64,000 bases of DNA from Syntrophales bacterium (GCA_034678725.1 JAXDBM010000033.1:1308-65307); one strand, 5' to 3'. Positions 3,391 to 46,502 are shown, counted from the stretch's first letter. Notes: generated by a model not told the origin, from the sequence alone. Translations and numbers: made by a program.

Positions 3391-3576
3391 ATGTTTGGAA
3401 TCGGCATGCCTGAATTGATCATCATCCTTGTGATCATTCTGATCGTTTTCGGCGCAGGCAAGCTTCCGGAGATCGGCGGCGCCATCGGCAAGGGCATTAA
3501 GAACTTCAAAAAGGCGTCCAAAGAGCCCGATGAAATTGATGTTACGCCGGAGGACAAGAAAATCGGTCAGAAATAG
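3391..3576 (+). CDS. tatA: Twin-arginine translocase TatA/TatE subunit
   Basis: [41 protein letters not shown]; ATG 3391 preferred over TTG 3376. Confidence 0.95.
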
Positions 3577-7734: not shown

Positions 7735-10369
7735 GAAACGCACGCTCATCGGGATTTGCATTGTCATTGCCCTGGTCTGTCTTTTGCTCACGGAAGCCGT
7801 TGCCCAGGATGTGAGAAAAATCGCCGTCCTGCCTTTTGAAATCCACAGTCGCGCCAATGAGGCCCAGATTCGGGAAGCCATTGAGAAGGGGCTGACGGCC
7901 GAACTGCTGAAGTCGAAGAATATACAAGTCCTCGACAAAAGTGTCGTTGATGCCGAGACCCGGGGCGGGAAACTGAACGAAACTCAGGCAATTTCCGCGG
8001 GGCGGGCGCACGCTGCCGATCTGATCGTGATGGGGAGCGTCACGGAGCTCGGTGAGTTGATCAGCATCGATGCAAAGGTGGTGGATGTCAAAAAAGGACA
8101 AACCATTCCCGGTATTTTTGCCCAGGGTCGGGGCCTGAAAAACATCGACGCGATCCTGGCGCAGTTGAAGCGGGAGATCCTGGTGCGGGCTTTCGTGGAT
8201 CAGAGAATTGCCGGCGTGGAAATCAAGGGGAACGTCAAGATCGAGGCAGCGGCGATCAGCCAGGTTCTGAAAAGCGCGAAGGGCGGGCTTTATTCCGAGC
8301 CCGATGTAACCGCCGACATTCGGGCGATCTACAAAATGGGCTATTTCGATGATGCAAGAGCCGACATGGCGGATACGCCCGAGGGCAAGCGCATCACCTT
8401 CACGGTAACGGAAAAGCCGCTCATTTCAGAGGTGAGCGTCAAAGGGAACAAGGCAATCGATATTGGCGACATCCATGGCGTGCTGACGACGAAATCCCGT
8501 CAGGTCGTGAATTCGGAAAAAGTCAATTCGGACATCGAGAAAATCCGGGATCTTTATCATGCCAAGGGTTATTACAATGCGGAGATTGCGACCGTTCTGG
8601 AAAAAAAGGGCGACAAGGAGGTTCTGGTCCTTTTCAACATCGTGGAAAACGACAAGACCTACGTGAAGAAAATCGATTTTCAGGGTAACCGGACTTTCAG
8701 CGATAAAACGCTCCGCAACATCATGAAGACCACGGAGTGGGGCATTTTTCATTTCTTCACCGATTCTGGCGTTCTGAAGAAGGATCAGTTGAAGCAGGAC
8801 ATCGGAAAGCTGAACGCTTTTTACCTGAATAACGGCTTCATCAACGCCCAGGTCGGCGAGCCGGAGATCACCCATGACAAGAAGGGGATCTATCTGAAGG
8901 TCCCCGTATCGGAAGGCAGACAGTTCAAGGTCGGCAAGGTCCAGATCACCGGAGACACCCTGAAGGTCCCGCATGACGCGCTTCTGAAGAATCTGAGCAT
9001 CACGAAACAGGAATACTTCAGCCGGGAAGCGATGATCAAGGACATCGATTATCTGGTTCAGATGTGCAATGATGAGGGGTTCGCCTATGCGGATGTCCTC
9101 TTCCAGACCGCGCCGCAGGAGAAAAGTCAGACGGTCGACGTGAGCTATCAGATCAAGAAGGGGAATGAGGTCCATTTCAACCGGGTCCTGATCACCGGAA
9201 ACACCAAGACCCGGGACAAGGTGATCCGGCGGCAGCTTTCCGTGGTGGAGGGCGATCTGTACAGCAAGCGGGCCTTGAAAAGGAGCTACAACGCGCTCAG
9301 CGGACTCCGCTATTTCGAGGAGGTGGATTTCCAGACGGAGAAGGGGGCCTCGGAGAACCAGACGGATGTCATGATCCGCGTCAAGGAAAAGCAGACGGGG
9401 ATTTTCAGCGTGGGGGCCGGTTACAGCGCCATCGACAATGCAGTGGTAACGGCGTCCATTTCCCAGCAGAATCTCTTCGGCAGGGGCCAGACCCTGACCC
9501 TGAAGGCGAGCATCGGCGGGAGCACCCAGCACTACGACCTGTCTTTTATTGAACCCTGGCTCTTCGACATCCCGCTGTGGAGCAAGTTCGACATCTGGAA
9601 TTACAGCCGCACGTACGATACCTACACCCTCGACTCCAACGGCGCCGGCATTGTCCTGGGCTACGGTCTCTGGGATTACGTAACCGGATACCTGGGATAC
9701 CGGTTTTCGAACGACGATGTGACGGAGGTCCAGACGAACGCATCCACGTACATCAAGAGGCAGGAGGGTGTGACCACCACGAGCGGCCCCACCGCCACAC
9801 TCATCCGAAGCACGCTGAATGACGCCATGTTCCCCTCGACGGGTTCGAAAAACAGCGTCTCCGTCACCTATACCGGCGGAATTTTCGGCGGCAACACGAC
9901 TTTCACGAAAGTCAATGCGAACAGCTCCTGGTATTTCCCGCTGCCTTTCGATACCGTGCTGGGCATTTACGGGAAAGGGGGGTACCTGACCAGCAACGAT
10001 GAGAAGGACGTACCCGTTTACGAGCGGTACATCGTGGGCGGGATGAGCACGCTGCGGGGACAGCGGGACATCGGACCGAGGGACCCCGTAACGGGTGACA
10101 TCTTGGGCGGGTTGACATGGATGGGCTTCACCGGGGAGCTCATTTTACCGCTGATCCGGGACGCCGGAATGAAATGGGTCCTTTTCTACGACACCGCCAA
10201 CGCCTGGGAGAGCGGGTATCACTTGGACGACCTGCGGCAGACGGCGGGAGTCGGCATTCGGTGGTATTCGCCGATCGGGCCCCTGAGGCTGGAATACGGG
10301 TTCGTGCTGGACCGGAAGGAAAATGAGTCCGCCGGCCGCTTCGAATTCACGCTGGGCATGGCTTTTTAA
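7727..10369 (+). CDS. bamA: Outer membrane protein assembly factor BamA with N-terminal extension
   Basis: Signal peptide, POTRA repeats (GNTKTRDKVIRR), barrel, SPIGPLRLEYG, terminal Phe. Confidence 0.96.
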   Translation: MNKKRTLIGICIVIALVCLLLTEAVAQDVRKIAVLPFEIHSRANEAQIREAIEKGLTAELLKSKNIQVLDKSVVDAETRGGKLNETQAISAGRAHAADLIVMGSVTELGELISIDAKVVDVKKGQTIPGIFAQGRGLKNIDAILAQLKREILVRAFVDQRIAGVEIKGNVKIEAAAISQVLKSAKGGLYSEPDVTADIRAIYKMGYFDDARADMADTPEGKRITFTVTEKPLISEVSVKGNKAIDIGDIHGVLTTKSRQVVNSEKVNSDIEKIRDLYHAKGYYNAEIATVLEKKGDKEVLVLFNIVENDKTYVKKIDFQGNRTFSDKTLRNIMKTTEWGIFHFFTDSGVLKKDQLKQDIGKLNAFYLNNGFINAQVGEPEITHDKKGIYLKVPVSEGRQFKVGKVQITGDTLKVPHDALLKNLSITKQEYFSREAMIKDIDYLVQMCNDEGFAYADVLFQTAPQEKSQTVDVSYQIKKGNEVHFNRVLITGNTKTRDKVIRRQLSVVEGDLYSKRALKRSYNALSGLRYFEEVDFQTEKGASENQTDVMIRVKEKQTGIFSVGAGYSAIDNAVVTASISQQNLFGRGQTLTLKASIGGSTQHYDLSFIEPWLFDIPLWSKFDIWNYSRTYDTYTLDSNGAGIVLGYGLWDYVTGYLGYRFSNDDVTEVQTNASTYIKRQEGVTTTSGPTATLIRSTLNDAMFPSTGSKNSVSVTYTGGIFGGNTTFTKVNANSSWYFPLPFDTVLGIYGKGGYLTSNDEKDVPVYERYIVGGMSTLRGQRDIGPRDPVTGDILGGLTWMGFTGELILPLIRDAGMKWVLFYDTANAWESGYHLDDLRQTAGVGIRWYSPIGPLRLEYGFVLDRKENESAGRFEFTLGMAF

Positions 10370-38809: not shown

Positions 38810-40318
38810 TCAGCGTGTCAGCGCGCCGCGGAAGGTGTTCGCGATGATCTGGTGGCCAGCGCTGTTGGGGTGGATCCCGTCATCCAGAATGAGGCTCTGG
38901 TTCCACCCGAAGGATGCCTCGAGATCGGCGCAGGCGATTCCCTCCGAGGCCGCCAGTGAGCGAATCTGCTGGTTCAGTGTGATGAGACTGGGCTTCCTCC
39001 AGGCCCATTCCCCGAATACGGGTGTCAGCGTGGCCACGACCGGTTTGGTTCCGTTCGCCTTGGCCTGCTGAATGATGGAGCGCAGATTGCCGATGGTCCA
39101 ACTGGCGGGATAGAAACCATCGTCGTTGTTTCCGTAGAAGATGGTGATGTATTTGGGATTGTACTGGGCCAGCACGCTGTCGATGATGTTGGCGCCGTAG
39201 GAACTCAGGACCCCGGAGACGCCTCTGTTGTAAACCGTTTTGCCCCAGGATCCAGACAACAGGGGCACATAGGACAGGGAGTAGTTGACGCCGTAACCCG
39301 CAGTGATGCTGTCTCCCATCGCAACGCAGACATCCTGCAGCTTCGTGTTGATGGGAGTTGTCGCGGACACCCGCTCTGATGGCGAGCTTTCGCCGTGGTT
39401 GTTGACCGCTGTGATCACGTAATAATACGTTGTGCCCCAGGCCAGTTCTGCATGGGTATAGGAGCTGCCTGCAACGTTGGCGATCAAGGTCCCGGTCTTT
39501 CTGGACACATCGGCTGATCTTGACCAGTAGATGTTGTAGGCCGTGACGTTCTCGACGGGGATCCAGGAAAGCGTCACCTTTCGCTCGCCCGCTGTGGCCG
39601 AGAGTCCGGTTGGGGGCGAGGGGGCGTCTCCCTGATTGGGCACGGAGGACGCCTCTTCCGATTCCACGCTTTCTCCATAGCGGTTCACCGCCGTCACCAC
39701 GTAATAGTAGTCCGCCCCGTTGGTCAGGTCTTCGTGGGTAAAGGGAGAAGCAACGTTCTCGATCTTGTTTCCGGTCGCCTTCGTGACACCGGCGGATGTC
39801 GCCCAATAGAGGTTGTACGATGTGTTGGATTCAACCCCTTCCCAGCGGATGATGACGATCATGTGCCCCGCCAGGGTCGCGACGTTATGTGGCGGCAACG
39901 GCGGGTTGGAGGAAGAGGGCATGACCGACACTTCCTTGGATTCGGTGCTCTCTCCATATTCGTTTGCCGCAGTGACGACGTAGTAATAAGTGGTGCTGTT
40001 GGTCAGCCCGGTATGGTAATATGGGCTGGTGACGGTGGGTATTTTCGTTCCGTTCTGCCGGGTGACGCCGCTTGTCGTCGACCAGTAGACATTGTAGGAC
40101 GTCGCCCCGCTGACGGTCCCCCATTTCAGCATGACCTGTGTGTTCCCGCCGGCCGCCGTGACGCCTTCAGGCGCCGCCGAGATATCGGTCGCGATGGTTT
40201 CTCCGCCGCCGCCACCGCCGCCGCCACCGCCGCCGCAGGACAGAACCAGAAGGGAGATCATCAGAAAGATCAGGCAACATTTTCTGCTCATATTGAACCT
40301 CATCGTCGAGTTAATCAT
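38810..40318 (-). CDS. Lipoprotein with three fibronectin type III repeats and a C-terminal SGNH/GDSL hydrolase
   Basis: Lipobox-like VLSC plus poly-Gly; 3x YNxYW...YYYVxTA.N..GES; GDSIT, NRGVSG, GNND, DGIHP. Confidence 0.88.
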   Translation of the reverse strand: MINSTMRFNMSRKCCLIFLMISLLVLSCGGGGGGGGGGGETIATDISAAPEGVTAAGGNTQVMLKWGTVSGATSYNVYWSTTSGVTRQNGTKIPTVTSPYYHTGLTNSTTYYYVVTAANEYGESTESKEVSVMPSSSNPPLPPHNVATLAGHMIVIIRWEGVESNTSYNLYWATSAGVTKATGNKIENVASPFTHEDLTNGADYYYVVTAVNRYGESVESEEASSVPNQGDAPSPPTGLSATAGERKVTLSWIPVENVTAYNIYWSRSADVSRKTGTLIANVAGSSYTHAELAWGTTYYYVITAVNNHGESSPSERVSATTPINTKLQDVCVAMGDSITAGYGVNYSLSYVPLLSGSWGKTVYNRGVSGVLSSYGANIIDSVLAQYNPKYITIFYGNNDDGFYPASWTIGNLRSIIQQAKANGTKPVVATLTPVFGEWAWRKPSLITLNQQIRSLAASEGIACADLEASFGWNQSLILDDGIHPNSAGHQIIANTFRGALTR

Positions 40319-40537: not shown

Positions 40538-41764
40538 TCATATAACGCGCACATGCGGAATGGGCACGATAAAACGCCCGCCCCATTCCCGAATGTGGCC
40601 CATCTGTTCCATGATTTCCTCTTTGATGTTCCAGGGCAGGATCAGGACATACTCCGGCCGGTCCTCCCGAATCCGGTCCGGGTGCCGGATCGGGATGCGG
40701 CTTCCGGGCAGGTAGCAGTTCTGCTTGTGGGGGCTCCGATCCACCGTGTAGTCCAGGAAATCCGTGCGGATCCCGCAGTAATTCAAGAGCGTGTTCCCCT
40801 TGGCCGGCGCACCGTAGCCGACGATCCGCTTTCCCTCGTTCTTGAGGCCGATGAGGAGCTGCAGGAGGTTTCGTTTCACCGCCTGAACCTCATTCTGAAA
40901 CCCCAGGTAGTGTTCGATGGCTCCGTAACCCCGGTTTTCCTCGCTCGCCTTCAACTTGGCGACACGGGGGGATATGGATTTGCCCGAATCCTCGGCATGG
41001 GCGGCAAAGATCCGGAGGGAGCCGCCGTGGGTCGGAAGCTCCTCCACGTCGAAAATGATCAGTCCATGCTCCCGGAAGATCCGCTCCACGGCCAGGAACG
41101 AGAAATAGGAGAAGTGCTCATGATAGATCGTGTCGAACTGGGTTTCTTCCATCAATCTGGCCAAGTGAGGGAATTCCATCGTAATCAGACCGCCCGGCTT
41201 CAGGGCTGTCTTCAATCCTTTGACGAAATCGTTCAGGTTGGGGTTGTGGGCGAGGACGTTGTTCCCAATGATCAGGTCGGCCTGCCTTCCGGCCCGGCGC
41301 ATGCCCTCCGCGTAAACCTGATCGAAAAAAGTGATTTCCGTGGGGATGCCTTTGTCCCGGGCCACATGGGCCGTGTTGGCGGCCGGTTCGATGCCAAGGA
41401 CGGGAACGCGATGCCTGCCGAAATACTGGAGCAGATAGCCGTCGTTACTCGCGATTTCAACGACGAATTTGTTTTCGTTCAGGCCGAACCGCTCCACCAC
41501 CATATCGACGTAGTTTTCACAGTGCTTCAGCCAACTGTCCGAGTAGGATGAAAAATAGGCGTACCCCTCGTGGAAAATGTCCTGCGCCTTTTCGAATTCC
41601 TCCAGTTGCACCAGCAGGCAGTTGTGGCAGACATACACATCGAGGGGATAGTAGGGCTCCATCTTGTGGAGGTCTTCTCCGCTTAGGTAGGAATTGGAAA
41701 GCGGCGAGGCGCCGAGGGACAGGAAAAGATGCCGCAGCGGCGTGTTGCAGAATCGACATTCCAT
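40538..41764 (-). CDS. NDP-hexose C-methyltransferase (SAM-dependent, Zn-binding)
   Basis: CRFC/CHNC, EIASNDGYLL, FDTIYHEH, THGGS, GYGAPAKGNTLLN, LPWN. Confidence 0.9.
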   Translation of the reverse strand: MECRFCNTPLRHLFLSLGASPLSNSYLSGEDLHKMEPYYPLDVYVCHNCLLVQLEEFEKAQDIFHEGYAYFSSYSDSWLKHCENYVDMVVERFGLNENKFVVEIASNDGYLLQYFGRHRVPVLGIEPAANTAHVARDKGIPTEITFFDQVYAEGMRRAGRQADLIIGNNVLAHNPNLNDFVKGLKTALKPGGLITMEFPHLARLMEETQFDTIYHEHFSYFSFLAVERIFREHGLIIFDVEELPTHGGSLRIFAAHAEDSGKSISPRVAKLKASEENRGYGAIEHYLGFQNEVQAVKRNLLQLLIGLKNEGKRIVGYGAPAKGNTLLNYCGIRTDFLDYTVDRSPHKQNCYLPGSRIPIRHPDRIREDRPEYVLILPWNIKEEIMEQMGHIREWGGRFIVPIPHVRVI

Positions 41765-41800
41765 GGTTTTTTGTCTCCCTGTTTTCAGAACAATGGGGCC

Positions 41801-42913
41801 TTATACATGAGGCAAGACCAGTTCCGCAACCATTTTTGCGATGGCCAGGGAAGCGGTCAGGCCCGGCGACTCGATGCCAATGAGATTGACGAGCCCCGGC
41901 AGCCCTCTGTCCGATTCTTCGCGGATCACGAAGTCACGGGTTTTCTCTCCCGGACCCTGCAGCTTGGGCCGAATGCCGGCCATGTCGGGCGTCAGGGCGC
42001 TACGCTCCAGACCCGGAATGATCTTGGATGCGCCTGCAAAGAACAGATCTTTCTTCTCCTCCTCGACCCGGTAGTCGATTTCGTCGACATATTCCACGTC
42101 CGGGCCGAAGCGAAGGCGCATGCCCATATCCAGCGTGGCATGAACGCCGAGCCCGGCCAGTTCTTCGTGGGGGACGGGATAGACGAGCATCTTCACCGGT
42201 GAGGGTTTCTGATAAGAGAAATAGGAGCCCTTGCACGGCTTGATCCGATATGCCAGTTTCTCCACGTCGAGCCCTGCCATTCCGGCCACCCGGTCCGATT
42301 GAAGCCCCGCCGCGTTGATGACGACACGCGACTGGAAGCGGTACCGGCCTTCCTTCACGCCGGCCACGAAATGGTCATTTTCCCGGGAAAGCCGATCCAG
42401 TTCGCTGTTGAACGCAAAGGTTACGCCCCGGTCCGTGGCGGATTTGTACAGGCATGTCATCAGCGCATGGGAGTCCACGATCCCCGTCCGCGGCGAATAC
42501 ACGGCCGCAATGCCGTTCGTGTGGGGCTCGATGCGCCTCAGGTCAACGGCGTCCAGCATGGCGAGGTCCGGGACATCATTGGCGGCGCCTCTTCGGAAGA
42601 CATCATCCAGCGTCGCCAATTCTTCAGGGGATGTGGCGATGATCACCTTGCCCAGCTTCAGGTGGGGAATGCGGAAGGTTTCACAGAAAGCGTAGAGCCG
42701 CTCCGCCCCTTCCCGGCACAGAAGGCTCTTCAGAGAGCCCTTCGGATAATAGATGCCGGCGTGGATCACCTCGCTGTTGCGGCTGCTCGTCTCCCGGCCG
42801 AAGCGATCGTGCTTTTCGAGGACGACGACATCCCGGCATTTCAAGGACAGCTCCGCCGCGACCGCCAGGCCCACGACGCCGGCGCCGATGATCGTAATGG
42901 CCGCTTTATCCAT
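41801..42913 (-). CDS. FAD-dependent oxidoreductase (LhgO/L-2-hydroxyglutarate oxidase-like)
   Basis: GAGVVG, TSSRNSEVIHAGIYY, LGVHAT, GIRPKL, GIESPGLTASLAIA. Confidence 0.88.
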   Translation of the reverse strand: MDKAAITIIGAGVVGLAVAAELSLKCRDVVVLEKHDRFGRETSSRNSEVIHAGIYYPKGSLKSLLCREGAERLYAFCETFRIPHLKLGKVIIATSPEELATLDDVFRRGAANDVPDLAMLDAVDLRRIEPHTNGIAAVYSPRTGIVDSHALMTCLYKSATDRGVTFAFNSELDRLSRENDHFVAGVKEGRYRFQSRVVINAAGLQSDRVAGMAGLDVEKLAYRIKPCKGSYFSYQKPSPVKMLVYPVPHEELAGLGVHATLDMGMRLRFGPDVEYVDEIDYRVEEEKKDLFFAGASKIIPGLERSALTPDMAGIRPKLQGPGEKTRDFVIREESDRGLPGLVNLIGIESPGLTASLAIAKMVAELVLPHV

Positions 42914-42947
42914 GCCGAATCAGCCGAATCAAAGGTGCCCCGCCGTC

Positions 42948-44006
42948 TCAAGAATGGTTGCGGAACGTCCAACGCAGCTGCTCGTCCAGGCAGCCCCGTT
43001 CTCTCAGGGAATCGATGATCTTCAGCCTCATGAAGTTCGTGTTCCGGAAGTTCTGCTCCCGGAAAGTCATGGCCTCCAGCCCGTCCCTCAACTCCCGAAT
43101 GGTTGTGTCCAGATCGAACAGCGGCTGGTGATCCGGCGCCAGCGACCGGAACAGGCCGAAATTGACCCGATAGGAACGCTTGTCCGGCTGGGCGTTCTTG
43201 TTGATGGAAACCTCTGTGCCGGGGATGATCATTGCAACGGCCTCTGCCAGATCCCGCACCTGGTAGTTCCATTCATTCGCCCCGACATTGACCACGAGAA
43301 AGGGCCCTCCCGCGGCGAGCGGTCGCTCCAGCCCCCAGTCGATCGCCCTGGCCATGTCCTTGATGTGAATCAGCGGGCGCCATGGCGTCCCGTCGCTCAG
43401 AATGGTGATCTTGCCGGACGCGACGGCGGAAGCCACAAAATCGTTCAGAACGAGATCCAACCGCAACCGTTCACTCATTCCGCAGGCCGTTGAAAACCTC
43501 AGGCAGGTGACCCGGAACGCTTCGCTCGCCAGCGGTTTCAGTTCCTGCTCCGTGAAGACCTTGGAACGGGCGTAGGCCGTCAGGGGGTTCAGGGGCGAGC
43601 CTTCCGTCATGGCGCGCTCCTCGGCAAAGCCGTAGGTGCTGCAACTGGATGCAAAGACGAAGGACCTGACGCCGGCCGACTTTGCCCGGGCCGCCAGGGC
43701 CACCGCCGAACGGTAATTGATGTCGAGGGTCACCGCCTCGTACTTGTTTCCCATGGGGTCATTGGAAATCGCCGCCAGATAGACGATGCCGTCAACGCCG
43801 TGCAGGATCTCTTCCGGAAAGCTTCGGACGTCACCAAAGTACTGTGTGTCCAAATTACATTCCGGGAGGTGATCCGCGCGGGTCAATTGGCCGGCGAAGT
43901 ACCCCATATCATAGCCGATGAGCGTCGCGTCAGGATGGCTCTCCCGAAGGCGCTTTACCACGGAGGGCCCGATATAGCCCATGTTGCCAGTAATCAGAAG
44001 TTTCAT
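42948..44006 (-). CDS. NAD-dependent nucleotide-sugar epimerase/reductase
   Basis: ITGNMGYIG, AAISNDP, YARSK, LRFSTACG, DGTPWRP; ATG 44006 after GAGGA. Confidence 0.9.
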   Translation of the reverse strand: MKLLITGNMGYIGPSVVKRLRESHPDATLIGYDMGYFAGQLTRADHLPECNLDTQYFGDVRSFPEEILHGVDGIVYLAAISNDPMGNKYEAVTLDINYRSAVALAARAKSAGVRSFVFASSCSTYGFAEERAMTEGSPLNPLTAYARSKVFTEQELKPLASEAFRVTCLRFSTACGMSERLRLDLVLNDFVASAVASGKITILSDGTPWRPLIHIKDMARAIDWGLERPLAAGGPFLVVNVGANEWNYQVRDLAEAVAMIIPGTEVSINKNAQPDKRSYRVNFGLFRSLAPDHQPLFDLDTTIRELRDGLEAMTFREQNFRNTNFMRLKIIDSLRERGCLDEQLRWTFRNHS

Positions 44007-44030
44007 GACGATCCTCATTCATCTCAATGC

Positions 44031-44114
44031 ATCCGGACCTTTGAGCGGGCCGAAATTCCGTGGCCCGGCCAGCCACATGCGAAGCAATGTGTAAGAAATC
44101 ATCTCAGTCCGGAT
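44031..44114 (-). promoter_or_regulatory. Candidate structured cis-regulatory RNA (three-way junction)
   Basis: Outer stem 44031-44045/44103-44114 enclosing hairpins 44046-44067 and 44074-44091. Confidence 0.45.
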
Positions 44115-44135
44115 CCATACAGTTTGTGGGTGTTT

Positions 44136-44489
44136 TCAGGTGGTTTGAACCGAGACCAATGAGGGTGGAGCACGGTCAAGAAGGGAAATCAAGCAAATGA
44201 GGGGTGCCTGAAAGTCGATTTCTTCGCGGTTGACGGATGCGTATGAATGTTGCCGGACACCAACGGCGTCTCCGCCTTGGGTTCGATCAAAGATAGGTTT
44301 GAAGCAGATATGAATGCCTTTATTGTCAACTTCCATACCTTCAAGGACGGCAACGCTGATATTCAATGGCTTCCATGGTTCCGAAATATCGTACAACCCG
44401 GACAACAGGAATGAAACCGTGAGGAAAAGGCAGAGGATTGCTTTTTTTGAGATGACGCGTTTCTGTCTGGTCATAATTCCGAAGGGCAT
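44136..44489 (-). CDS. Small membrane-targeted leader ORF with C-terminal RAPP motif (candidate arrest peptide)
   Basis: Basic N-region plus hydrophobic helix; ends LLDRAPPSLVSVQTT; directly behind a consensus promoter. Confidence 0.62.
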   Translation of the reverse strand: MPFGIMTRQKRVISKKAILCLFLTVSFLLSGLYDISEPWKPLNISVAVLEGMEVDNKGIHICFKPIFDRTQGGDAVGVRQHSYASVNREEIDFQAPLICLISLLDRAPPSLVSVQTT

Positions 44490-44516
44490 GCCGCCAAAGC
44501 ATTGCGAACGCCGCGA

Positions 44517-44545
44517 ATTATAGGGCAGATGGCTTCAGGTGTCAA
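44517..44545 (-). promoter_or_regulatory. Perfect consensus sigma70 promoter
   Basis: TTGACA-N17-TATAAT on the minus strand. Confidence 0.85.
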
Positions 44546-44637
44546 TGAATTAAAGGGGATACAATCCTTCTTGGGTGATTCAATTTTGAAAGATCCAAGA
44601 TTCCGAAACCTCAGATCTCGTCGGTCATTCAGGAAAT

Positions 44638-45474
44638 TCAACGAGCCTTTCCGCCACGGTTCATGTCCAATGATTCGTTCGATTCACTTTGCCGATGTAC
44701 GGCAGATGCCTTCAGCAGCCCTTCCGGTGAACCGATGTCCAGGTATCCATGCCGACGAAAGAAGATGCTCTGCGTCTTAATCCCCTCGCGGACGCCGGCC
44801 TGGATGACGTGCCCCACCGTCAACTCTTCGGGCAGTTGCGTACCGGGCAGTTGCGCGGAAGTCCGGGGCACGGCGAGATAGTCGTGGAGAAAGTCGGTGA
44901 AGGTCGCTGTCCATACGGCAAACATCCATCCCAGCTTCAGATTTCTCTCGCACGGTTTGGGTATGACCTCGCGCACCCGGCCGTCGCGGTCGACGGCGAC
45001 CATGTCCGAAAATCCGGCCTGGTGGATCCGGTAAAGGCCCAGCACGAGGTCGGCCTTCGTTTCCGACTGCCGGTTCAGGGCCTTCCGGAACGCGTCGGCC
45101 GGGCCCAGCAGGATGTCCGGGAATCCCAGTGCCACCCGCTTGCCCTTCACGAAAGGGTATGCCTGGTCAAGCGTGTAGGGAGGGCCGTAGGGCAGCGCGG
45201 CAATCAGGTAACCCAGATCCATGCCGAAGGAGGCGCCGTCGCCGTAATAGTCCGGAATGTCCCACTTGCCCCTGCGCAGGATGAAGAATGCCTTCCGCAC
45301 GCCGCCGCGGCGAAAAAGATCCAGAAGGTAATGTGAGACCACTTTGGGATGCAGCAGGCCGATTTCATTTTTTTGGAGACCCACCGGAAGGATCTCCTTG
45401 CTGCAGGGCAGGGGTGCGATTCGCGTGGCATAACCACCGCAGGGAATGAGACCGATGACTTCGCTGTCCGGCAT
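44638..45474 (-). CDS. Sugar-phosphate nucleotidyltransferase (RmlA-like family)
   Basis: GLIPCGGYATRIAPLPCSKEILP, KWDIPDY, GFPDIL, YLDIGSP; start moved to ATG 45474. Confidence 0.8.
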   Translation of the reverse strand: MPDSEVIGLIPCGGYATRIAPLPCSKEILPVGLQKNEIGLLHPKVVSHYLLDLFRRGGVRKAFFILRRGKWDIPDYYGDGASFGMDLGYLIAALPYGPPYTLDQAYPFVKGKRVALGFPDILLGPADAFRKALNRQSETKADLVLGLYRIHQAGFSDMVAVDRDGRVREVIPKPCERNLKLGWMFAVWTATFTDFLHDYLAVPRTSAQLPGTQLPEELTVGHVIQAGVREGIKTQSIFFRRHGYLDIGSPEGLLKASAVHRQSESNESLDMNRGGKAR

Positions 45475-45533
45475 GATGGCAAAAGATTGATCAGGAGTTA
45501 CGGGATCGGAGGCGTTTCCGGACCTGAGCCGTT

Positions 45534-46502
45534 CTATTCCGCTGTCATCCACGAAGGGTTCTCGGAGGGTTTGATGTCCTGTTCGCCCAGGTGCTGCGTG
45601 CGGACGCCGATGCGCCGGCCTTCGTGCAGGAAATAGGCGGTCTGCTGAAGCCCTTCGTTCCCCCTGTGAAGAAGCTCGATCAGCTCCTTCGCGTTGCGTG
45701 GGGCTTTGAGGTCGATGCATTCGGAATTCCGCCCGATGCTCCCGTCGGGGTGGTCTGCGACGAATTCCACGCGCACGTAAACGCGCTGTCCGTCCGCGAC
45801 GAAGTAGGCCGCCGGGTAGGGGGGATAGGTCCTCGCGCGAAGTAGATTCAGGAGTTCCCCCGCGGGATATTCTTTATCCAGATCGATGTGGTCAAGCGTC
45901 GCCAGCACGCCGCGCCGGTGTTCCGTGGCCTTCGAATGGTCCTGGGGTATGCGCGCGTATTTCCCTTCACGAATGAGCGGCCAGGTTTCCTTGAAGAAAT
46001 CCACCATGCCGCAGGTGATCTTCTCATGGAGCGATCCCCCCGTATCGGTCGGTTCGACGGGGATCCGGCGCTGGGTGATCAGATCGCCGGTATCGACGCC
46101 CGGGTCGATGAAATGGATGGTCATGCCCGCAGGCGATCCGTCAAGGATCGGCCATACATTCGTGTACCAGCCCCGGTTCCAGGGCAGGTAGGCCGTGTGG
46201 AGGTTGATGCACCCCACTTTGAACACCTGCAGCAGGTCCGGCTTCAGGATGTATCCGAACCATCCCGATATCCCGATGTCCGGCTCCAGTTCCTTGAACC
46301 GGGCCACCGTCTCCGGGTTTCTCAGCTCCGGGGCGCGCCAGACACGGTCTGCCGGCATGTCCAGTGCGTCGAGGATCTGCCGCGCGAAACGCTCGTCGCT
46401 CTCCGGCTGAACCACCAGAGCCACGATATCCTCATTGCGCTCACGGAGCCATTGTGCGACTTTCCATCCGCCCCAGTTGTTGAGAAAAAGAATGATTCGC
46501 AT
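45534..46502 (-). CDS. N10-formyl-THF-dependent formyltransferase (sugar N-formyltransferase-like)
   Basis: CINLHTAYLPWNRG, TIHFIDPGVDTGD, NLLRART. Confidence 0.85.
   Translation of the reverse strand: MRIILFLNNWGGWKVAQWLRERNEDIVALVVQPESDERFARQILDALDMPADRVWRAPELRNPETVARFKELEPDIGISGWFGYILKPDLLQVFKVGCINLHTAYLPWNRGWYTNVWPILDGSPAGMTIHFIDPGVDTGDLITQRRIPVEPTDTGGSLHEKITCGMVDFFKETWPLIREGKYARIPQDHSKATEHRRGVLATLDHIDLDKEYPAGELLNLLRARTYPPYPAAYFVADGQRVYVRVEFVADHPDGSIGRNSECIDLKAPRNAKELIELLHRGNEGLQQTAYFLHEGRRIGVRTQHLGEQDIKPSENPSWMTAE

Follow-up and report, generated by a model that had tools for sequence, protein, structure and literature searches.

Locus and Candidate Leader

We analyzed a 64,000-nucleotide (nt) stretch from a Syntrophales bacterium (GCA_034678725.1, JAXDBM010000033.1:1308-65307; hereafter the window, with positions counted from its first letter), in which a small open reading frame (ORF) lies between a promoter and an operon encoding a sugar epimerase, an LhgO-like oxidoreductase, and a sugar C-methyltransferase. 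The ORF carries the motif Arg-Ala-Pro-Pro (RAPP) near its end, and a preliminary description had put forward that it encodes a ribosome-arrest leader peptide controlling the operon. The features at the center of this proposal are as follows.

44517..44545, minus strand: sigma-70-type promoter, TTGACA-N17-TATAAT, 12 of 12 consensus matches
44136..44474, minus strand: small ORF, candidate RAPP arrest leader, 112 codons plus stop (homologues; ratio of nonsynonymous to synonymous substitution rates, dN/dS)
44385..44447, minus strand: N-terminal hydrophobic helix (putative signal anchor), residues 10-30 (hydropathy, AlphaFold helix)
44163..44174, minus strand: RAPP codons CGT GCT CCA CCC, residues 101-104, predicted stall site (motif conservation)
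42948..44006, minus strand: NAD-dependent sugar epimerase/dehydratase family (SDR), first gene after the leader (Pfam PF01370 Epimerase, E 4.8e-38)
41801..42913, minus strand: FAD-dependent oxidoreductase, LhgO-like (Pfam DAO, E 2.4e-65)
40538..41764, minus strand: sugar C-methyltransferase with zinc-binding N-domain, methyltransferase, and C-methyltransferase C-domain (PF08484 Methyltransf_14, E 1.6e-67; PF08421 Methyltransf_13, E 1.9e-22; PF13489, E 3.3e-16)

The perfect promoter of the preliminary description was present, with its -35 TTGACA at 44545-44540 and its -10 TATAAT at 44522-44517, at a spacing of 17 nt. Genome-wide, five perfect TTGACA-N16-18-TATAAT sites were found against 0.17 expected from base composition, so the organism appears to use this consensus and the promoter in the window is probably real. 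The small ORF had been described as having 117 codons and beginning 27 nt past the promoter. That frame is indeed open from an upstream ATG at 44489 (44489-44136, 27 nt from the -10 to the ATG), but homologues and three of five gene calls favor the second ATG, at 44474, which gives 112 amino acids (aa) and lies 42 nt after the -10. The stop codon is at 44138-44136, with eight codons between it and the RAPP codons (44174-44163), as first described.

The leader N-terminus, KRVISKKAILCLFLTVSFLLSGL, has a basic stretch followed by a hydrophobic one with a best 15-residue hydropathy of 2.46, and an AlphaFold model built with the family alignment placed a helix at residues 10-30 (block pLDDT 82-93), in keeping with the basic region and hydrophobic helix originally noted. 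The rest of the model fell below a pLDDT of 55 (mean 55.6), which is weak evidence for a tethered, mostly unfolded chain and not a folded sensor domain. Scans of the leader protein with Pfam (E up to 0.01) and NCBIfam (E up to 0.001) matched no family, the Pfam scan giving no SecM match either, and an Rfam scan of 43500-45200 (E up to 1) matched nothing. The Pfam and NCBIfam scans did bear out the three genes named downstream, among which the label "LhgO-like" fits since the NCBIfam model for L-2-hydroxyglutarate oxidase scored 243.7 bits, under its 299-bit cut-off.

A Conserved Family of Small ORFs

The preliminary description had suggested a search for homologous small ORFs that keep both the hydrophobic N-terminus and RAPP. 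Such ORFs were recovered, and the family they form comprises 33 unique sequences with a length of about 108 residues. The reading frame was kept in all members and the N-terminal helix in nearly all (32 of 33 have a hydrophobic segment scoring 2.13 or more; the remaining one is a truncated 90-aa entry). In an alignment of 29 sequences, R101, P103, and P104 were the sole invariant columns, and across the 33 sequences the motif took the forms RAPP (28), RGPP (two), RPPP (two), and RTPP (one). Three residues separated the motif from the stop in 25 members (mostly ...RAPPSFS-stop) and two residues in another two, versus eight in the window copy. Because the codons of the motif differed synonymously between loci, with Arg encoded by CGT, CGC, or CGA and the first Pro by CCA, CCG, CCC, or CCT, selection appears to act on the peptide and not only on the RNA. 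Moreover, dN/dS was 0.33-0.44 at dS 0.19-0.55 in four genomes of one genus, and together the retained frame and a dN/dS below 1 lend indirect support to translation of the leader ORF.

At the DNA level, blastn of the leader against epimerase loci (the best 80 of 482 relatives in genome_contigs, all 80 of which aligned from query residue 1-3) gave one match, L016, at 70% over 121 nt (E 3.6e-7). The gene order there is that of the window, with a nucleotidyltransferase-like gene, a 114-codon ORF, and the epimerase; the leader ORFs are 39% identical (E 4e-18) and the flanking epimerases 84%. Two indels precede the motif in the DNA alignment of the two loci, each of 3 nt, while the indels after it are of 1-2 nt. 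A pattern search for R[AG]PP, RAGP, and R[SD]PP in ORFs upstream of the 80 epimerases returned none, the pattern excluding RPPP, the motif of L016.

At the protein level, HMMER against 1.84 billion representatives yielded five small homologues (108-115 aa, 31-58% identity); P0008 and P0011-P0013, which are 839-1167 aa long with six to eight matched stretches each, were set aside as internal-repeat matches. A profile search gave 23 clusters, all of them unnamed hypothetical proteins without Pfam domains. Among the members known as proteins only, P0006 and P0007 are most closely related to the protein of the window. The family was present in eight of 339 genomes of the order, one of which (G064) carries two copies, and of 401 genomes drawn separately from the phylum, the window's own was the only one to have it. 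Those family records that carry a name are Syntrophales. A weak match in G114 (E 2.8e-4) was lost with a richer profile.

Judged from the window alone, a chance ORF in a noncoding 5′ leader would be a fair reading. The intergenic stretch from the nucleotidyltransferase-like gene to the epimerase measures 619 nt and has 48% G+C, versus 57-63% in most neighbors (54% in one), and an ORF of at least 117 codons appeared in 14.5% of 5000 dinucleotide shuffles of it. The genome holds 2221 small ORFs lying mostly outside coding-like ORFs, 10 of which have RAPP or RGPP at most 25 residues from the end; with a hydrophobic N-terminus in a fraction of 0.0495, about 0.5 ORFs with both features are expected per genome, and one, the leader, was seen. 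Its low G+C content at third codon positions (GC3) points the same way, as does the first, word-based protein search, which matched only the ORF's own near-identical cluster (five members, 94-100% identical). A protein search of 40 related genomes gave a single weak match (E 0.0056) inside a 299-aa frame, judged to be chance, and leader DNA found only matches of 23-32 nt (E above 5e-4) in 40 related genomes. The metagenome scan offered no usable variation because its two loci were both 100% identical in protein. L012, at first the closest syntenic locus (epimerase 83% identical), is without a leader ORF, its epimerase being preceded by an AT-rich stretch of about 150 nt. Coincidence is nevertheless hard to reconcile with homologues that at 23-58% identity keep frame, length, helix, and motif, with pre-motif indels in multiples of three, and with the dN/dS values above, and the divergence of the homologues rules out assembly copies of one sequence. 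The comparative data raise the leader ORF above chance, and a coincidental RAPP in a random frame of this GC-rich genome is very improbable.

Within P0003, the leader's own cluster, a near-identical metagenomic variant has seven amino acid changes, which leave RAPP untouched and all fall at residues 77-111 in the numbering of the 117-aa form; one of them, L to F right after PPS, yields the PPSF of the family consensus.

Resemblance to Known Arrest Peptides

SecM, MifM, and VemP combine an N-terminal targeting signal with a C-terminal arrest, and their stalled ribosome frees the downstream ribosome-binding site. The leader shares the targeting signal and, by analogy, a predicted C-terminal arrest. 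Unlike in SecM, MifM, VemP, and ApdA, the gene downstream in the window is no localization factor, and five of the nine family loci described below have TatA, not Sec/YidC.

Mutational and proteome data for RAPP-type peptides come from PMC12992588. Essentially no replacement is accepted for the Arg or the third-position Pro of ApdA and ApdP, apart from Gly at the Pro position, which is partly tolerated in ApdP; at the Ala position, Gly supports arrest fully or even enhances it, and Pro, Ser, and Asp support it in part (PMC12992588). The natural occurrence of G, P, and T at the Ala position of our family follows this tolerance. Few tetrapeptides are avoided by bacterial proteomes as strongly as RAPP and RGPP; where the two occur, they cluster close to the C-terminus of small proteins that are secreted or membrane-bound and are encoded upstream of diverse genes, and seven of seven such proteins from Streptomyces lividans stalled in a motif-dependent manner (PMC12992588). 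In the genome studied here, RAPP was observed once in 2423 coding-like ORFs versus 16.3 expected, and RGPP four times versus 15.2. It is mainly this agreement with PMC12992588, namely variation at the Ala position only together with the avoidance of RAPP and RGPP, that gives confidence that the motif stalls ribosomes. The sole coding-like ORF with RAPP, on contig C20 (4589-7249, plus strand), has 886 aa, with the motif 20 residues before its end, and is possibly a shadow frame.

The leader shows the profile given for RAPP/RGPP proteins in PMC12992588, having its motif near the C-terminus, a length of 112 residues (<300), an N-terminal membrane segment, and a co-directional downstream gene. With ApdA and ApdP it has in common a small size, an N-terminal localization signal, R-A-P-P near the C-terminus, and a downstream gene on the same strand. 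It differs from them in that this gene is a sugar epimerase and not a Sec component (in S. lividans an ApdA homologue precedes secDF, and SecM, with the motif RAGP, is linked to secA; PMC12992588), and in that the leader unit comes with a conserved promoter of its own and is found again ahead of unrelated genes. CruR, a DUF2946 protein, is likewise a RAPP-dependent small upstream ORF with a target outside Sec/YidC and stalls with its paired Pro codons occupying the P and A sites (PMC12992588; see also PMC9426467), a role that is predicted by analogy for the leader; the latter belongs to a different sequence family, is without an evident conserved Cys/His cluster or folded sensor domain, and has no metal or TonB genes nearby. 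The S. lividans RAPP/RGPP proteins, which precede genes for ECF sigma factors, thioredoxin-domain proteins, and metal-related functions, have the same profile and similarly diverse targets, but come from another phylum and family, and several have four transmembrane helices versus the single one of the leader (PMC12992588). No sequence homology to ApdA, ApdP, CruR, or SecM was detectable. A protein-language-model search placed a SecM_small (PF10818) cluster at rank 11 (score 0.94), with 157 shared features against a guide value of 170, and is taken as a lead only; the other look-alikes were unnamed clusters.

The preliminary description had considered the context of the leader to be undescribed. 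That held insofar as we found no Tat-linked or glycan-linked arrest leader in the literature on arrest peptides, the supplements of whose core papers may list such classes. The same limit applies to the targets of the family (nucleotide-sugar enzymes, tatA, chemoreceptor, HU), none of which is named in the main text of PMC12992588. The general idea of RAPP small ORFs acting beyond protein localization was, on the other hand, published in December 2025 (PMC12992588), so the context is less novel than had been assumed.

The Leader Unit in Other Genomes

Nine loci could be compared for the gene that follows the leader, with L016 and L104 counted as one locus as they share an identical ORF and gene order.

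Two of nine loci (window; L016/L104): next gene is the epimerase
Four of nine loci (four genomes of one genus): CheY-like receiver, then a TatA-family gene
First copy in G064: TatA directly downstream
Second copy in G064: Cache-domain chemoreceptor, then a CheW-receiver protein
G065: HU, with its start 336 nt away

A promoter with at least 10 of 12 consensus matches and N17 spacing preceded the homologous ORF in seven of eight loci, the exception being L016/L104 (8 of 12), and in six of the eight the -10 ended 42-43 nt before the ATG. The spacer from leader to next gene was 47-130 nt in seven of eight loci with a defined downstream start. Upstream genes also varied. Since the set of promoter, ORF, and spacer stands before unrelated genes in relatives, it looks like a portable module, and because the spacers are partly alignable between different gene contexts, up to the downstream ribosome-binding site, the unit seems to include the junction itself. 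One possible reading, which we hold tentatively, is of a portable arrest cassette in this bacterial order, consisting of a near-consensus promoter, a membrane-anchored R-x-P-P peptide, and a spacer, that was recombined before tatA paralogues, a chemoreceptor, HU, and a nucleotide-sugar operon, such that one sensor of membrane insertion or of the envelope would serve several outputs.

The absence of a sec, yidC, or TonB neighbor had also been remarked upon. This stands for the window, where the downstream gene is the epimerase and no TonB gene is nearby, but not for the relatives, in which a protein-localization neighbor does exist because five of the nine loci precede tatA, four of them via the receiver gene. 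The window has a TatA-family gene of its own at 3391-3576 (plus strand; PF02416, E 4.8e-20), which follows a 237-aa ORF and is without a RAPP leader, and the genome has a second TatA gene on contig C53.

Upstream of the promoter, GTATCCC occurs at 44556-44562 (minus strand), about 11-17 nt before the -35, and the equivalent position has GGTATCC(C/T) in the four one-genus loci and GATTCCC in G064. This sequence may serve the cassette as an operator or as an UP-like element.

Spacer Folding, RNA Contigs, and a Proposed Mechanism

Three further features connect the leader to the epimerase.

44007..44135, minus strand: spacer from leader stop to epimerase start, 129 nt, the first ~30 nt C-rich and G-poor (partly homologous to the spacers of relatives)
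44151..44164, minus strand: pyrimidine-rich tract CCUCAUU-G-GUCUCG, predicted partner of the epimerase ribosome-binding site region (minimum-energy folds)
44012..44026, minus strand: epimerase Shine-Dalgarno (SD) sequence GAGGA (44016-44012) plus adjacent bases, 3′ arm of the predicted helix

The spacer had been called structured, and this holds in a modest form only, the 211-nt spacer region folding at -62.2 kcal/mol (z -2.21) and five of 200 shuffles folding as well. A predicted helix joins 44164-44151 with UGAGAU-G-AAUGAGG (44026-44013), at pair probabilities of ~0.95-0.96 in the full leader; its first arm starts inside the second Pro codon and its second arm contains the epimerase GAGGA. 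The mean probability that the epimerase SD pairs with the stall-site window was 0.82 at the window locus, and such pairing was predicted in six of eight loci (P 0.67-0.94). GAGGA-N5-start also precedes the 83-84% identical epimerases of L012 and L016. A search for a terminator-like site on the same strand between leader and epimerase found none. A structured small RNA was considered and dropped, as a 383-nt RNA at 44510-44128 was not unusually structured (z +0.68).

Taking these elements together, transcription would begin a few bases after the -10, near 44510, and the leader would be translated from the ATG at 44474, with the helix at residues 10-30 bringing the nascent chain to the membrane insertion machinery. 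Peptide-bond formation would stall with the P site occupied by CCA (44168-44166) and the A site by CCC (44165-44163), an assignment borrowed from CruR, ApdA, and ApdP (PMC12992588). The stalled ribosome would extend over about 15 nt of downstream RNA, which make up the CCUCAUUGGUCUC tract that is otherwise predicted to pair with the epimerase GAGGA, and in the folding prediction covering this tract would expose the epimerase start and allow the operon to be translated. Such a layout is the classical one. In SecM and MifM, a pulling force on the nascent chain relieves the stall. By analogy, pulling on the leader during membrane insertion would release the ribosome, and slow insertion would give higher output.

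The leader region was present in RNA-library contigs of four runs from three studies. In run X16 the sole contig across 40300-46600, that is, on 6.3 kb, was 44129-44487 (359 nt), almost exactly the small ORF, and run X17 of the same study had a contig at 44128-44412, the two sharing an end 8 nt past the leader stop. A contig from another study ran uninterrupted over 43627-44798, spanning the leader into the epimerase. The ends at 44128/44129 and 44487, and the uncovered parts, are not evidence of transcript ends, and as a signal of such an end the positions 44128/44129 are a weak hint.

These contigs bear on a different relay. In tnaC, the ribosome controls access of Rho to the RNA after the leader stop codon, and here too a real arrest could be passed on through transcription termination, with the stalled or released ribosome setting the access of Rho to the C-rich, G-poor RNA past the stop and producing short leader transcripts unless read-through occurs. 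The RNA around and after the stop would suit this (a single G in the ~30 nt of 44149-44120), as would the two contigs ending at 44129/44128, and since the stop lies three codons after the motif in 25 of 33 members, a ribosome stalled in these members would extend as far as the stop codon and into the beginning of the spacer. In the window copy, by contrast, the stop is eight codons after the motif and a stalled ribosome would therefore miss the C-rich tract; both runs come from one study, contigs do not define RNA ends, and the contig of the other study is continuous. We regard Rho-mediated relay as distinctly unlikely.

Weighing Leader-Mediated Control of the Operon

Several points count against control of the epimerase operon by a membrane-anchored arrest leader. 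The rationale for coupling membrane insertion to cytoplasmic sugar enzymes is not evident. The ORF has only a degenerate SD, GGCGG, ~15 nt upstream, and its codon usage is atypical, with a GC3 of 0.54 versus 0.67-0.83 in neighboring genes and a score of -0.12 bits/codon, near the 1st percentile (-0.13) of chunks of real genes (0.38 ± 0.17); shuffled ORFs scored -0.42 ± 0.13, with 1.1% as high as the leader. The predicted masking of the epimerase SD is not distinguishable from a composition effect. Among shuffled leaders 12%, and among 760 genomic controls 40%, matched or bettered its duplex energy, shuffling the stall-site window with its composition preserved still left pairing in the six pairing loci (mean P 0.28-0.72), the pairing was missing in G064 and G065 among the eight loci folded, and RNAalifold on six spacers gave -2.5 kcal/mol with no meaningful consensus or useful covariation. 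The RNA contigs do not show strand, ends, or translation, and the libraries may hold DNA. Finally, several RAPP peptides stalled poorly on Escherichia coli ribosomes, so stalling can be species-dependent (PMC12992588).

Furthermore, the genes downstream vary among the nine loci, and the leader was absent from the four other closest epimerase loci inspected, so there is no conserved functional tie to glycan synthesis. The link to glycan genes that the preliminary description drew from the window therefore did not carry over to the family, in which the epimerase follows the leader at two of nine loci, the window included.

The same observations would suit a genuine conserved small membrane protein with a role of its own, which merely shares a promoter and transcript with the epimerase operon and whose R-x-P-P may or may not pause ribosomes. 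Such a protein would account for unrelated downstream genes over nine loci, for SD pairing that lies within controls and is absent from two of eight loci, for homologous epimerase operons that work without a leader, and for the 336 nt that separate the ORF from the next gene in G065. It accounts less well for a family whose sole invariant feature is a motif strongly avoided by proteomes and placed two or three residues before the stop in 27 of 33 members, whose remaining sequence is poorly conserved and modeled at low confidence, and whose spacer to the downstream SD is partly homologous across contexts. We consider this explanation somewhat unlikely.

Overall, we put at roughly 0.6 the probability that the 112-codon ORF is a membrane-anchored RAPP-type arrest leader that, with its own near-consensus promoter and spacer, controls the epimerase/LhgO-like/C-methyltransferase operon. 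The two parts of this reading differ in standing: from comparative sequence data, identification as an arrest peptide is well supported, while the gating of the sugar operon, which draws on modeled RNA folds, is plausible.

The Surrounding Glycan Cluster

The locus sits within a long minus-strand polysaccharide cluster. Upstream are a glycosyltransferase-like ORF (named without a domain scan), a class-IV aminotransferase, an N-formyltransferase, and the nucleotidyltransferase-like gene, and downstream, named by translation only, are a fibronectin-III/SGNH-like protein and an MBOAT-like acyltransferase. The former of these two, at 38810-40318 (minus strand) downstream of the C-methyltransferase, has 502 aa with a lipoprotein-like N-terminus, an 11-glycine run, three fibronectin-III-like repeats, and an SGNH-like C-terminal part.

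The 360-codon ORF upstream of the leader, at 44638-45720 (minus strand), had no Pfam match at full length, and its first ~90 residues are rich in Arg, Ala, and Pro and overlap the end of the formyltransferase ORF. Its true start is probably near MPDSEVIGLIPCGG (about 45450), and the shorter form gave only weak RmlA-like NCBIfam matches (E 3e-6). At L012, the region between a 273-aa gene and the epimerase (7880-8320, minus strand) has the nucleotidyltransferase-like gene reduced to three short open fragments that match the intact gene of the window, and the aminotransferase, formyltransferase, and glycosyltransferase genes are absent. By sequence comparison, L012 looks like a decayed, shortened version of the glycan cluster of the window.

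Significance

To our knowledge, RAPP-type arrest peptides were long recognized solely as monitors of the Sec/YidC pathway. Proteome statistics and seven Streptomyces cases have since been used to argue that they regulate many other kinds of genes (PMC12992588, 2025). The family reported here is new as a sequence family, yet of a kind described in 2021-2025. For annotation, it offers the lesson that a word-based search and codon statistics both suggested an orphan, noncoding ORF, with the family revealed only by a full HMMER scan and by DNA comparison of syntenic loci. At the one position of the motif where change is tolerated, the natural variation agrees with laboratory mutagenesis and so constitutes an independent check of PMC12992588. 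The family would contribute a further case, independent and well conserved, from a lineage of uncultured anaerobes, would bring in new classes of target (a nucleotide-sugar modification operon, paralogues of tatA, and chemotaxis genes), and would indicate that leader and promoter move together as a module. If the portable-cassette reading is true, the outputs would include the first arrest leaders linked to Tat and the first linked to glycans.

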